Positions 46,301 through 52,300 of a stretch of 64,000 bases of DNA are shown one piece after another (within the stretch, counting starts at the first letter, position 1; each line of letters starts with the position of its first letter). The DNA is from Escherichia coli (GTDB lineage: Bacteria > Pseudomonadota > Gammaproteobacteria > Enterobacterales > Enterobacteriaceae): assembly GCF_030384885.1 (NCBI RefSeq), contig NZ_CP128613.1; one strand, 5' to 3'. A program made the position numbers.

Positions 46301-49300
46301 GCCTGTCAGCGCCAGCGAGGATCTCGGCGCAGGTACGCATGTTGAGGTGATTGCGATAGAAGGGATAACGCTGATTATCCGTGCGGTCATCGCCTGATGC
46401 GACGCTGGCGCGTCTTATCATGCCTACAAAATATGCCCGAATCGTAGGCCAGATAAGGCGCTTGCGCCGCATCCGGCATATAGCCGAGTAGAGGCAAAAT
46501 TACTCTTCCCGGCCTTTACCCATACTTTTTTGGTCTTCATCCGGATAATGTTTTTTTAGATATTCCAGGACGTTTTTATTGACCTTGTGTTGCGTATACA
46601 CCCACCCTTTCCAGTAATCAGGCTGGTCCAGGTAAACTTCTGGCGGAATGGTGAAATCAGAAAGCGTTAACCATTCGGCTAATAGATCGGGGTTTCGTTT
46701 CTGGATTAACTGCAACAGCATAATCAGTGACATAGCTGAGGCAGGAGCCGTACTATCGCCACTTAAATATTTCCACACTGTTGACCGGTTCGAACGAAAA
46801 AGGATCGGTAGCAATGCCCGGTCCAGATTCATTTCATTAAAAATCTTCTCAAATTCATTCATTTAAATTTTCCTGCCTGGCGTAAACCTCTTAAAAATTG
46901 AGATTTATCAAAGAAACGCATTTTAGCACACATCAGGAACTGCTTCACGTTTAGTCCAGAAACAGAATTTATTTCGCTTATCAAAACAAGTCTTTACTCT
47001 TTTTTACATTAAAAGAGCACGAAATGTTTTCCTTTTTAATTTATAAAAGAAACATTTTTTGTTTCTTATTTGTGGTGTTTACGCTTACACCAGACAAAAA
47101 TGTGCTTTACATCACACAAATGGCGGCGTAGATTTCGATTAAATTGCAACGTAGTTTATTTCTTAAAACAATATTATTTGTTTCTTATAGAAACATTAAT
47201 GCGACTTATTTTGAACAAGAGAAAATGAATGAAAACTGTAAACGTAGCTTTACTGGCACTCATAATTTCAGCAACATCCAGCCCTGTTGTTTTAGCTGGT
47301 GATACCATTGAAGCGGCGGCAACAGAGCTTTCAGCCATTAACTCTGGCATGTCGCAATCGGAGATTGAGCAGAAGATTACCCGCTTTTTAGAACGCACCG
47401 ACAACAGCCCCGCTGCATATACCTATTTGACTGAACATCACTACATCCCTTCTGAAACACCTGATACCACTCAGACTCCCCCTGTCCAGACAGATCCTGA
47501 CGCAGGACAAAAAACCGTTGCCGCTACAGGTGATGTACAGACAACCGCCCGTTATCAGAGCATGATCAACGCCCGACAGTCTGCGGTAACTGATGCCCAG
47601 CAAACGCAAATTACAGAGCAACAGGCGCAGATCGTAGCCACACAAAAAACGCTCGCCGCGACTGGAGATACGCAAAATACTGCGCATTATCAGGAGATGA
47701 TTAATGCCAGACTGGCGGCTCAAAATGAGGCTAATCAGCGCACTACCACGGAACAAGGGCAGAAAATGAATGCACTGACAACCGATGTGGCAGCACAACA
47801 GCAAAAAGAAAGGGCTCAATACGATAAACAAATGCAAAGTCTGGCGCAGAAGTCTGTCCAGGCACATGAGCAAATTGAAAGTCTGAGACAAGATTCCGCA
47901 CAAACGCAGCAACAGTTAACCAACACCCAAAAACGGGTCGCAGATAACAGCCAACAAATTAACACGCTCAATAACCATTTCGATTCTCTGAAAAACGAAG
48001 TTGAGGACAATCGTAAAGAAGCCAATGCGGGAACTGCATCTGCCATCGCTATCGCTTCACAACCACAGGTGAAAACCGGTGACTTTATGATGGTGTCTGC
48101 AGGAGCGGGAACGTTCAACGGTGAATCTGCGGTGTCTGTCGGAACATCATTTAATGCTGGAATTCATACAGTAATTAAAGCGGGAGTCTCTGCGGATACA
48201 CAATCTGATTTCGGCGCGGGTGTCGGCGTGGGGTATTCGTTCTAATTTTAATAGCAATTTCTTATTCGCAATTTTCCGTACATTATTTAAGGTTAACAAT
48301 GATGAATAGCTCCATTAAATCGTTTTCCCTGCTGGCGGTTATATTACTGGCTGGCTGTAGTTCACCCACTTCCCGCATCGCAGATTGCCAAGCGCAGGGA
48401 GTCAGTCATGACACCTGTTATCTCGCAGAACAACAGCGTCAGGCGGCTATTTTAAGTGCATCAGAAGCACAGGCATTTAAAAATGCAGAAGCCGCACAAC
48501 ATGCCCAGGCCGCTAAAAAATCTATTTATAAAGGATTTGGCGTCACCTTCAGAATGAGCAGTAAGAACTTTGCTTATCTCAATGATTCATTATGTGCCAT
48601 AGATGAAGATAATGCCGATGCCACGGTTTATCAGTCGGGTCTGTATAACGTCATTGTTTATCATCACACAGGAAAAGTAGCCTTAATGAAAGAAGGCCAG
48701 TTTGTGGGTTATTTAAAATGAAACTCACGCTTATACATATTATGATTATTGGCGCTTTTATCTTTGCATTCTTGCAAGTGGTATTATTAGCCTCCCTGGT
48801 TCACGCTGTGAATGTTAACAACGAAATCCAGGAAGGCTTATTTCAGTCGGGGCGCATTATGGTAGAAAGTTTGCAGCATATTCTGTCTGTGCAACCGGGG
48901 ATTAACGGGTAAGAGCACCGCTTCCATTTATAGAGCAATAGTCACCCGCGTAATTTTCTGGCACAGTTCAGGGAACTGAAATTTTGGCTAAGGAGTAGCC
49001 ATGCTTTTTCCCTGTCGAAAACCTGAAGTACGTCTGCTGAAAAATACCGCTGCGGGCGTCATTTTTTCGGTGAAGTCAGGTAAAGGATTTCTGCGTCAAT
49101 GTGTGATTTACGATCCGCACCCTTATGGGCTTATCCGTTCGCTCTGCTGGCAGGATGTCCCGTTAATACGTTTCTGGTCCGAGGCTGGCTGCCCCACCTG
49201 TGCGGAATTTGTCTACAGCGGTTTTGCGGATGATGAACAGGGAGCCGCCCGGTTTTTGTCTGCTCTCGAAAACTGGAATCGCCCGTGGTCTGGCATGACG

Positions 49301-52300
49301 GACGCTTTTGCCGCGCTGACACCGCTGTTCTCATGCATGGCTGATGGCTATTATCTGCTCGAAGATCGTGAAATTTACCCGACGGATGGCAACGGGCATT
49401 TCTTTTGGGCGGCAACGGACCATAGCGCCAGTAATCCGGCGACCGTTGCCGTCTGGGATCCTGAATATTGCTATTTCAGTGACACCGCCCCCTGTTTTCT
49501 TCTACCCGGCCAGCCGCCATCACATTTTAATCCTGAGCGTGCGACGTTTTATCGCGATAAACCGGACGCCCGCGCTCTGGCCTGGTATCTCCCTGATTCC
49601 TATCTCTGCGTTCTGCTCGACGGGCACCATAAGGCCACTGCTGCCGCACTGGAAGGGCGACCGCTCAAAACACTGGTACTCAGCACGGCAACCCGTTTTA
49701 ATGATGAGCAACAAACACTGGTATTTCCGGGCGGAGAATGTCTGCACAAAACAGAGCTACTGTGCCACGTTCCCAAACTCACTGAGTGGAAAACATTACC
49801 GCCCGGCGCATGGGAGAGTTTCGGCCCTGATAAGCACATCAGCCCATCCGAAACCTGGTCTGAAGAGTTGCAGCAGAGCGTCAGTCGGTACCCTTCACTG
49901 GATCAAGCCTGGCAAATTGTTGAGGCCGGGAATTTGAGCGAAACTCGTATTAAGAGCATGATCCAACAAGGTTTGGGGGAGGATGAAAAGGCTGATGTAA
50001 TTTTGCAGGCACTGTTTTCCACACACTCGCCGCTTTTTATTGACTTTGCCCGATTCGTTATCAGCTATCCGGCATACGCCAGTTATCGCCCCCTCACCTT
50101 CCGGTTGATGGCGCAAAACCGAACGCCGCAAGCAGATGCTTTTTTTCTGGATTTTGCCATCAATGATGACGGCGAACGTCCGGAGTTGACGAAAATAATG
50201 GACGACTATTTTCGCAAGCGTTAATCACCCCGCCCGATGATGACAGCAGCCGGAGAGATTTTCGATAATCGGGCAGTCGGCGCTGTCATCACCGGGGCAG
50301 GCATTCGCCAGCGCCAGTAACTGGTTGCGCATGGATTGCAGCTCCTCAATGTGTCGTTCGATCTCCGCCACCTTCTCCAACGTGCGCCGTTTGACGTCGG
50401 CGCTATGCCGCTGCGGGTCGTTAAACAGATTCACCAGTTCGCCGCTCTCTTCCAGGTTAAAGCCCACCTGACGCGCCTGGCGCAGTAAGGTCAGTTCGTT
50501 GAGATGCTGCTGCGTGTAGGTTCGATAACCGTTTTCGCTGCGCATCGGCGGCGTCACCAGCCCCTTTTCTTCATAGAAGCGAATGGCTTTGCTGGTCAGG
50601 CCGGTAATTTTTGCTACATCGCTAATGTTCATCGTTCGCGCAACGCCTCCTGTGCTTTGTTAAAGGGTTTCAACAGATAATCCAGCACGCTTTTTTTGCC
50701 GGTGCGGATATCGACCGTCGCCACCATGCCGGGAAATATCGGAAACTGCTGTTTATGTTTATTTTCCAGATGGTTGCTGAAAGTGCGAATGTACACCCGA
50801 TAGTAATAAACATCGCGCCGCACTTCATCCTGCACGGTGTCCGGTGAAATCACCGCCACTTCCCCTGGCAGGCCGCCGTAGATGGAATAATCGTAAGCGG
50901 TTATTTTCACCAGCGATTTTTGCCCCGGATGGATAAACGCCACATCGCGGGGGGAGATTTTTGCCTCGATCAGCAGTTGCTCATCCAGCGGCACGATGGT
51001 CATCAGTTTACCACCGGGGGCGATGACGCCGCCAACCGTGGTGACGTCAATGTCCTGAACAATGCCTCGCACCGGCGCAGTAAAGTTGAGCCGCGTGAGA
51101 GAATCTTCCCGCCCGCGGATCACCGAACGCTGGGTTTCCACTTCCGCATTGGCTTTCGCTAACTCTTCGCGCGCCTGAACGTAGTATTGCGTGCGCACGT
51201 CGCTAAGTTTGTTTTCCAGTTCATTGGCCTGACGTTGCAGGCGCAGCACTTCGACGCTGCTCGCCGCCCCCTGTTTTACCAGCGGCTGGGTCATCGCCAG
51301 TTCGCGGTTGACCAGGCTAATCCCCTGCGTCAGCCCGGTGGTGGCTTTGTTCAGCCCATCGCGGCGAGTGTTATATAACGCCGTTTCCGACTCGATAAGT
51401 TCGGGGAATTTATTCAGTTCGTCAGGGAAGACCAGCGGTTTATTGCTCACTTCCGCCCGCAGCCGCGCCGAGGTTGCCAGCGCCGCGTACAGCCGCGACA
51501 TCGCTTCCTGGACGTCGGATTCCGTTTTGGTGCGGTTAAGCTGTGCCAGCGGCTGCCCCTGTTCGACAATATCGCCAACCTTCACGTCGAGATGATACAA
51601 AATCCCGCCTTCCAGAGACTGCACCACCTGTTCGCGTCCAGAAGGTTCTACCGTGCCGCTGCCGGTGGTGACTTCATCAAGCTGGAAGTACCACGCCCAG
51701 CCGAGAAAACAGAGCAGCATCACAGCGGTAACGCGCACCGCCAGCGCCGAACGTGGCAGGCGGGGTTCAGTCAGGCCACGGTTGTATTGCAGTTGTCCGT
51801 TCATGCGGCAGACCCCTTATTCTTCTCCTGCAACACCACGCGTCGCGTCGTGGGTTCGCCCTGTTCACGCAAAATGGTCTCTTTCGCGCCGTCCATCACA
51901 ATGCGCCCCTGATCCATCACAATTATCCTGTCCACCAGTTGCAGCATTGCCGTGCGGTGAGTAGCGATGACCAGCGTGCGATGGCCAATCCACTGTTTTA
52001 GTTGTTCAATTAAATACGCTTCCGCCATTTCATCCAGCGAGGCACTGGGTTCATCGAGCAGCACGATATTGGGTTGAGAGATGAGGAGCCGCGCCAGCAG
52101 CAGCGTTTGTCGCTGACCACCAGAGAGGCCAAATCCCCCTTCCTGAATCATGTAGTTGAGGCCGTTTTTCTGCTTCTGCACAAAGGGCAGCGCCCCGCTG
52201 AGGGTTAATGCGCGTTCGATATCTTCATCGCTGGCTTCTGGCATCCCCATGGTGAGGTTTTCCCGCAGCGAACCGAAGAACAGTCGCCCGGTCTGGCTGA

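Follow-up and report, generated by a model that had tools for sequence, protein, structure and literature searches.

A candidate ParB/Srx-like protein family encoded flush against cueR in Escherichia coli

When the stop codon of one gene lies directly against that of a convergent regulator, it raises the questions of whether the contact itself does anything and of what the adjoining gene encodes. Both arise in the window analyzed here, a 64,000-nt stretch of Escherichia coli contig NZ_CP128613.1 (assembly GCF_030384885.1), in which an open reading frame (ORF) for a 407-aa protein converges tail to tail on the copper regulator gene cueR. Our answer, held with moderate confidence, is that the gene stands alone, encodes a soluble cytoplasmic protein of an uncharacterized ParB/Srx-like family, and meets cueR at an ordinary, inherited junction.

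The contact is real. As the first-pass annotation had claimed, the stop codons of the 407-aa gene and cueR touch without intergenic space (spacer of 0 nt, Table 1), and no canonical intrinsic terminator is predicted on either strand. The 407-aa ORF is also a genuine gene, because it has a ribosome-binding site, is annotated as a coding sequence (CDS) by RefSeq, shows a ratio of non-synonymous to synonymous substitution rates (dN/dS) of 0.12–0.21, and yields a confident structural model (predicted local distance difference test score, pLDDT, 91.2; predicted template-modeling score, pTM, 0.89). The dN/dS range comes from comparison with seven orthologs, namely, those of strain F11 (uropathogenic E. 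coli), three other Escherichia species, E. albertii, Superficieibacter, and Salmonella. Both CDSs are also annotated by RefSeq in the 99.9% identical genome of E. coli 2013C-4282, where the 407-aa product is a “hypothetical protein.” The AAGGAG ribosome-binding sequence and ~40 nt 5′ of the ATG are kept in F11 and in AR_0058, both of which lack the YadA module described below.

Conservation within the family is concentrated in a few places. Across a 68-sequence alignment, F135 and D207-G208-H209-H210 are invariant, and in every one of the 68 members the residue after D207-G-H-H is K or R. Nearly invariant are C64-x-T66-C67, Y-P-T-D-G-x-G-x-F-F-W (residues 126–136), and L-L-D-G-H-H-[K/R]-A-x-A-A-A. 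Homologs formed 114 clusters in a word-indexed search; a full profile search recovered 746 cluster representatives at E ≤ 1e-3, 328 of them at E ≤ 1e-30, nearly all full-length at ~420 aa. Relatives are encoded in 309 of 100,044 species genomes, mostly those of Clostridia (Ruminococcus, Lachnospiraceae, Ruminiclostridium, and Angelakisella) and of Paenibacillus/Brevibacillus, with scattered members in Escherichia, Superficieibacter, Saezia, Haliangium, and Deferribacteraceae. Fusion variants with N-terminal extensions (P0165, P0168, and P0236) carry no recognizable extra domain.

The model was built with AlphaFold2 from the 68-sequence alignment. An N-terminal six-stranded beta domain (residues 9–73) holds the CPTC motif in a loop and is followed by a mixed alpha/beta middle domain, in which strand 202–207, helix 209–218, and strand 222–229 carry DGHHK; the C-terminal domain is all-helical. 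We are fairly confident that the central domain is ParB/Srx-like at the level of fold and motif. In three dimensions, it resembles solved ParB/Srx structures: a Foldseek search of the PDB gave no significant match, and the weak list that it returned was headed by ParB-CDP, Noc, SerK, 1vk1, and PadC. Against AFDB50 (the clustered AlphaFold Database, AFDB), Foldseek returned 187 matches at E ≤ 1e-3, with template-modeling (TM) scores of 0.6–0.8 and E-values down to 1e-29 for full-length homologs, which bear such UniProt names as “ParB-like nuclease family protein,” “ParB/Sulfiredoxin domain-containing protein,” and “ParB N-terminal domain-containing protein.” An hhalign comparison with the ParB N-domain profile gave a single alignment in the expected register (P = 0.023, probability 2%), in which P-T-Q meets P-Y-Q-P-R, R-v-e-y-Y meets the helix that comes next, and G-H-H-K meets G-E-R-R. 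In the comparison with a vertebrate Srx profile, the N-terminal half again fell in a consistent register (P = 0.3). The G-x-x-[R/K] loop between a strand and the next helix, which appears in the superfamily as GERRxR, GGCHR, or DGHHR, is present here as DGHH[K/R]. The first-pass annotation had found no recognizable motif in this protein, a statement that gives way to an invariant DGHH[K/R] within a ParB/Srx-like fold.

Two familiar identities within this superfamily were considered and rejected. The protein has the N-terminal-domain fold of the canonical ParB, Spo0J, Noc, and KorB CTPase clamps, and its PxQ and G-x-x-[R/K] motifs keep the same register as theirs. It differs from them in having no match to a helix-turn-helix (HTH) domain, DGHHK in place of the GERRxR arginine patch, no parA or parS partner, and a HEAT-like C-terminus, and it is therefore not a partition protein. 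Nor is it a sulfiredoxin, as the catalytic cysteine of F-G-G-C-H-R, the nucleophile of that enzyme, is replaced by the invariant H209. Compared with the enzymes of the ParB/Srx superfamily (sulfiredoxin, the free serine kinases SerK and SbnI, and ParB-like PadC), only the 407-aa family has a 160-residue N-terminal extension, made up of the CPTC beta domain and YPTDGNGHFFW, and only this family has the HEAT-like C-terminal domain.

Searches of curated collections gave the protein no name. Pfam-A, NCBIfam, PADLOC, and PHROGs returned no match for the 407-aa protein or for up to 78 of its relatives; among five diverse members, there was no PADLOC family and no PHROG below E = 0.19. A sequence-profile search of the PDB with the 407-aa protein likewise found nothing significant. 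Judged by its sequence, the protein falls outside every curated ParB/Srx family.

The position of the conserved loop suggests what the protein might do. CTP or ATP is bound through its phosphates by the G-x-x-R loop of ParB, Srx, SerK, and SbnI, in which the residue following the glycine joins in catalysis; GERR of ParB and GCHR of sulfiredoxin are the phosphate-binding and catalytic loop of the fold. DGHH[K/R] is placed where ParB has GERR and sulfiredoxin has GCHR. By analogy, nucleotide binding is the most likely activity of the protein, whether it works as an enzyme or as a switch. A nucleoside triphosphate (NTP), either ATP or CTP, would be bound at the DGHHK loop, with H210 and K211 contacting its phosphates and H209 at the catalytic position. 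The flanking domains, one with the CPxC knuckle and the aromatic/acidic loop and the other HEAT-like, would provide recognition of a substrate or partner. That would make the protein either an NTP-dependent enzyme, namely, a phosphotransferase or an NTPase, or a switch gated by nucleotide. A bolder reading, which we regard as unlikely, is that the family is a new enzymatic branch of the ParB/Srx superfamily, in which the CPxC knuckle, the aromatic/acidic loop, and the G-H-H-[K/R] loop form one active site with a chemistry undescribed for this fold. Such an enzyme might be, for example, an ATP/CTP-dependent phosphotransferase or one for redox-linked repair, with a protein or small molecule as its substrate. 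It would have a role in gut Clostridia and enterobacteria, to which the motility defect of a Salmonella mutant, described below, is possibly related.

Gene neighborhoods offered no partner or pathway for the family. When ORFs within 4 kb of the family gene were clustered across 80 loci, no conserved neighbor emerged. The commonest, an upstream SPFH protein, occurred at five loci in enterobacteria and three in Firmicutes, a number too small and a phylogenetic spread too narrow to count as an association. At the three Firmicutes loci (L032, 2387–6248; L033, 2471–6251; L044, 1272–6206), an SPFH/Band-7 gene lies upstream on the same strand, with an RtcB-like ligase between it and the family gene in two of the three. 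This arrangement echoes the enterobacterial order of qmcA, ybbJ, and the family gene.

These neighborhoods bear on the most viable alternative, namely, that the protein is not a housekeeping-type enzyme and is instead a component of a conflict system of mobile DNA (a defense, anti-defense, fertility-inhibition, or immunity factor) whose ParB/Srx domain acts on foreign DNA or nucleotides, as do Osa or the NTPase domains of the DndB/GmrSD type. The family is patchily distributed and is frequently lost within one species, it occupies different chromosomal sites in Escherichia and Salmonella, and its alleles are fairly divergent within E. coli (a synonymous divergence, dS, of 0.14 between the window and F11). 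One homolog lies in a conjugative element, between type IV secretion system (T4SS) and Tad-pilus genes and near SMODS/SLATT genes, and others sit in variable accessory arrays beside an Imm5-like gene. However, the PADLOC and PHROG searches of five diverse members were empty, no partner gene is conserved across the 80 loci, and no nuclease or HTH domain was detected. In addition, no integrase or transposase flanks the enterobacterial copies, and their synteny is stable across genera. We therefore consider a conflict-system role improbable, and we retain the ParB/Srx-like protein of probable nucleotide-binding function as the better account.

One member of the family has been named in the literature. 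Published primers for STM0660 of Salmonella map to the ends of the Salmonella ortholog and yield a product of the stated 1,191 bp (PMC2137926), and the Salmonella family member is identified as STM0660 on this basis. This “putative cytoplasmic protein” is 54% identical to the 407-aa protein over its full length and has the same fold (AFDB A0A5V5HEE6, TM 0.94). It differs in location, as its gene lies between rihA and hscC rather than beside cueR. STM0660 has served as a typing locus that varies between serovars (PMC2137926), it is listed in one transcriptome table, and its deletion mutant was placed under “reduced swimming only” in a deletion screen, without complementation (PMC4219756).

We then turn to the junction. 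In MG1655, cueR (513,993–514,400) and ybbJ (514,401–514,859) are themselves convergent with a gap of zero, and the junction sequence TTAA/TCACCC (the slash marks the gene boundary) is identical in the window and in the K-12-type ybbJ/cueR pair. The spacing between the 407-aa gene and cueR is 0 nt in E. albertii, E. whittamii, and two further Escherichia species, and the two genes overlap by 4 nt in Superficieibacter electus and by 38 nt in UBA5654, an Enterobacteriaceae metagenome-assembled genome. Spacing is therefore ≤0 nt in all six enterobacterial species with the gene at the ybbJ–cueR locus, so the arrangement is not due to chance. The last residue of the protein, R in the window, is P in the majority of the other Escherichia copies. 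Strain HB6 (O157-like) has no 407-aa gene, and the ORF that ends 3 nt from its cueR stop is a different, small one; AR_0058 retains a frameshifted remnant of the gene that is still flush with cueR. Because the 3′ end of cueR is flush with varying convergent ORFs, the contact is not special to the 407-aa gene. Zero-nucleotide tail-to-tail contact is an inherited architecture of the cueR 3′ end, whichever gene adjoins it. The contact had been taken as a feature of an accessory module, a view that does not survive the finding of the same flush end beside ybbJ, a pseudogene, or a small ORF. Comparison of the cueR 3′ end with K-12, which the first-pass annotation had in view for locating an insertion junction, returns the same TTAA/TCACCC and places the left deletion end-point no more finely than the shared CTTAA.

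The lack of a spacer invites the question of transcription across the junction. A consensus scan of a 4.7-kb region found nine terminator-like sites, a number not much above the shuffled expectation of 5.3 ± 2.0, and none at the junction. An inverted-repeat search did find a strong stem-loop in the last 22 codons of cueR (Table 1), with folding z-scores of −2.9 on the plus strand and −4.0 on the minus strand. It spans the codons for GDDSADC...GCCHH, and none of its 29 predicted pairs showed compensatory changes among seven enterobacterial sequences. We rejected it as a terminator, as it has no U-tract on either strand and no covariation; it is probably a by-product of the Cys, His, and Asp codons of cueR. 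A known RNA at the junction was also rejected, since Rfam gives only sub-threshold matches, REP-like and near ybbJ. A sigma-70-like site lies on the plus strand at 50240–50269, and promoter-like sites in the region are no commoner than the shuffled expectation.

With no spacer and no predicted terminator, convergent read-through across the junction of the 407-aa gene and cueR is plausible from the sequence. The first-pass annotation expected antisense transcription of each gene into the other, and here the layout does permit read-through; what it pictured is of a known and common kind. In K-12, cueR–ybbJ is 1 of 165 convergent excludons of MG1655, present in at least 50% of 58 RNA-seq samples (PMC12288877, ExcludonFinder). 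That pair has the same cueR 3′ end, the same junction sequence, and no terminator, and it differs in that the partner is ybbJ rather than the 407-aa gene and that its transcript overlap is documented. The layout of the window thus fits an excludon (0-nt spacer, no terminator-like site), with overlap recorded for the K-12 pair only. In the window, the 3′ ends of the convergent transcripts would overlap as they do in K-12, and read-through would presumably be curtailed by Rho.

A link to copper finds no support. The cueR mRNA is not known to be copper-induced. The first-pass annotation had suggested that the layout could couple expression of the accessory module to levels of the copper-responsive regulator, which is countered by two observations: it is the CueR protein that senses Cu(I), and copA is still activated in a copper-dependent way when cueR is expressed constitutively (PMC5329002). 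We saw no sign of a special link between the 407-aa gene and copper regulation.

The same evidence weighs on a second alternative, that the zero-spacer layout is a true excludon in which transcription of the 407-aa gene lowers cueR mRNA and vice versa, through collision or through antisense pairing and RNase III cleavage, so that copper homeostasis depends on the activity of the neighbor. This alternative is in keeping with the lack of a predicted intrinsic terminator, with a spacing that stays at ≤0 nt across six species and through two independent losses of the gene, and with the overlapping cueR–ybbJ transcripts in at least half of the K-12 samples (PMC12288877). Yet the neighbor varies (407-aa gene, pseudogene, ybbJ, or small ORF) while the length of cueR is constant, which argues that no particular partner is needed. 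With 165 such convergent pairs in MG1655, overlap is common and its consequence mostly obscure (PMC12288877), and CueR acts by binding copper, with constitutive expression enough for the copper response (PMC5329002). The hairpin at the 3′ end of cueR shows no compensatory changes, and selection against damaging cueR can account for the flush deletion end-points. We consider such a regulatory device quite unlikely, and the ordinary inherited junction remains our reading. The stop-to-stop contact is neither an insertion scar nor a copper-linked control device, being shared with K-12 and surviving loss of the gene.

How the gene came to adjoin cueR was approached through a census of 5,426 complete E. 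coli genomes. The gene is present, in whole or in part, in 965 of them, and at least 80% of its length is present in 270 (~5%); ~13% of genomes hold a shortened copy, and ~82% hold nothing. Among genomes with any part, ~72% retain only ~58%–60% of the gene, in three pieces, and the one shortened copy inspected (AR_0058) is annotated as a frameshifted pseudogene. Intact copies are under purifying selection, and the gene is being lost in E. coli. Losses took more than one form. In the K-12-type loss, ybbJ has become joined to the shared CTTAA of the junction, whereas the HB6 loss (L093, 3794–4001, vs. window 48718–50227) runs from the last codons of a 64-aa ORF to 3 nt before the cueR stop; since the junctions differ, the losses are independent. 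Both deletions end ≤4 nt from cueR, for which the only account offered is selection for an intact cueR. In Superficieibacter and UBA5654, synteny is kept at 47% protein identity, which points to long residence at the locus followed by repeated decay and deletion. The 407-aa gene thus seems to be an old resident of the ybbJ–cueR interval in Escherichia and its relatives. The window and F11 copies (L010, 5001–6224) differ at a dS of 0.14 and share 94% protein identity, a divergence unusual within E. coli, and 737 of the 965 genomes match at only 90%–95% nucleotide identity.

It is very improbable that the ORF is a decaying remnant without function in the window strain, conserved only historically: although most genomes lack the gene, most E. 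coli carriers hold a shortened copy, and the copy inspected is frameshifted, the window copy is full-length with every family-invariant residue intact, a low dN/dS, a confident model, and a good ribosome-binding site.

Several points weigh against our overall interpretation. The ParB/Srx names that UniProt gives to homologs are automatic annotations. None of 78 family members matches Pfam ParBc (PF02195) at E ≤ 0.1, the hhalign probability is just 2% for ParB with P = 0.3 for Srx, and in an hmmsearch with a hidden Markov model of the core, ParB and Srx sequences do not stand out from shuffled decoys. Nucleotide binding and catalysis are drawn from analogy with the superfamily. The sole recorded phenotype is the reduced swimming of the uncomplemented STM0660 deletion (PMC4219756). 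Transcript overlap at the 3′ end of cueR is on record for the K-12 cueR–ybbJ pair only. Ancestral status at the locus is argued from synteny in a few genera, and the gene could instead have been inserted repeatedly at the ybbJ–cueR junction, the only neutral insertion point between these genes because they abut.

Table 1. Coordinates in the window of the features discussed
Feature	Position	Strand	Details
Variable segment from ybbJ to the 407-aa gene	46398–48912	both	REP elements, four ORFs
Shine-Dalgarno sequence AAGGAG	48990–48995	+	Read from sequence, 5 nt before the ATG
CDS of the 407-aa cytoplasmic protein	49001–50224	+	ATG start; RefSeq WP_106907577.1; ortholog of Salmonella STM0660
C64-P-T-C67 motif, loop of the N-terminal six-stranded beta domain	49190–49201	+	C64, T66, and C67 in ≥90% of the alignment
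Y-P-T-D-G-N-G-H-F-F-W, aa 126–136	49376–49408	+	P127, D129, G130, F134, and W136 in ≥90% of sequences
Candidate ParB/Srx-like core, ~aa 160–235	49478–49705	+	D207-G-H-H-K211 at 49619–49633, strand 202–207 to helix 209–218
C-terminal all-helical HEAT/ARM-like repeat domain (model), aa 288–405	49862–50215	+	
Junction TAA/TCA	50222–50227	both	TAA of the 407-aa gene at 50222–50224; TGA of cueR (TCA on the + strand) at 50225–50227
cueR, Cu(I)-responsive MerR-family regulator, 135 aa	50225–50632	−	Start overlaps the stop of the upstream HlyD-family gene (ATGA)
Stem-loop, 15-nt arms, last 22 codons of cueR	50233–50296	both	Inverted-repeat search

The surroundings of the gene separate it from its upstream neighbors. 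The variable segment between ybbJ and the 407-aa gene holds, at window 46500–48912, a 120-aa ORF on the minus strand, a 338-aa trimeric autotransporter adhesin of the YadA family, a 140-aa lipoprotein, and an overlapping 64-aa hydrophobic ORF. The adhesin has weak NCBIfam matches to the C-termini of EmaA and Vomp, and the lipoprotein has weak TraV and Lpp-like matches. The whole segment is missing in F11, E. albertii, and Superficieibacter, in all of which the 407-aa gene stands alone between ybbJ and cueR; HB6 shows the converse, keeping the segment without the gene. Because each occurs without the other, the “accessory module” of the first-pass annotation is composite, and the 407-aa gene is not tied to the YadA/lipoprotein segment. 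In F11 and E. albertii, a repetitive extragenic palindromic (REP) element and a conserved leader of ~40–70 nt precede the 407-aa gene.

Other observations concern the segment itself. The YadA-family adhesin is longer elsewhere, at 415 aa in E. whittamii and 579 aa in Escherichia sp. E1V33. REP-type repeats lie at window 46355–46514, directly after the ybbJ stop, and F11 has a related REP at the same place; Rfam naRNA4 matches there are sub-threshold, at 29–32 bits vs. a gathering score of 59.5. At window 48948–48975 there is a perfect 6-3-6 palindrome, CAGTTC-AGG-GAACTG, and the ribosome-binding site of the 407-aa gene follows ~30 nt downstream. The stretch that holds the palindrome is absent from F11, so it is not a conserved operator.

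On its other side, cueR stands at the end of a co-oriented block of adhesin and type I secretion system (T1SS) genes that spans window 50629–63926 and continues past the window end. The block comprises a SiiEA/BapA-like giant adhesin (an ORF of >3,319 aa that runs on), a T1SS ABC permease/ATPase, and an HlyD-family adaptor, whose stop is overlapped by the cueR ATG at 50629–50632. K-12-type genomes and F11 are without the block; what they retain upstream of cueR is ~95 nt from the 3′ end of the HlyD gene, and this piece is annotated as a pseudogene. Given this remnant, the K-12 state looks like a deletion. The retained piece of HlyD may contain the cueR promoter.

Taken together, the layout is ordinary and the protein moderately interesting: an unnamed three-domain family best placed within the ParB/Srx superfamily. 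As matters stand, this is an ordinary uncharacterized gene. The analysis gives a first structural handle, a predicted ParB/Srx-like nucleotide loop with named residues, on a protein present in ~18% of complete E. coli genomes (intact or partial), most Salmonella, and hundreds of gut Clostridia. Should the family turn out to be enzymatic and to act on a new substrate, it would broaden a superfamily whose recent surprises include the CTPase clamps and the serine kinases.

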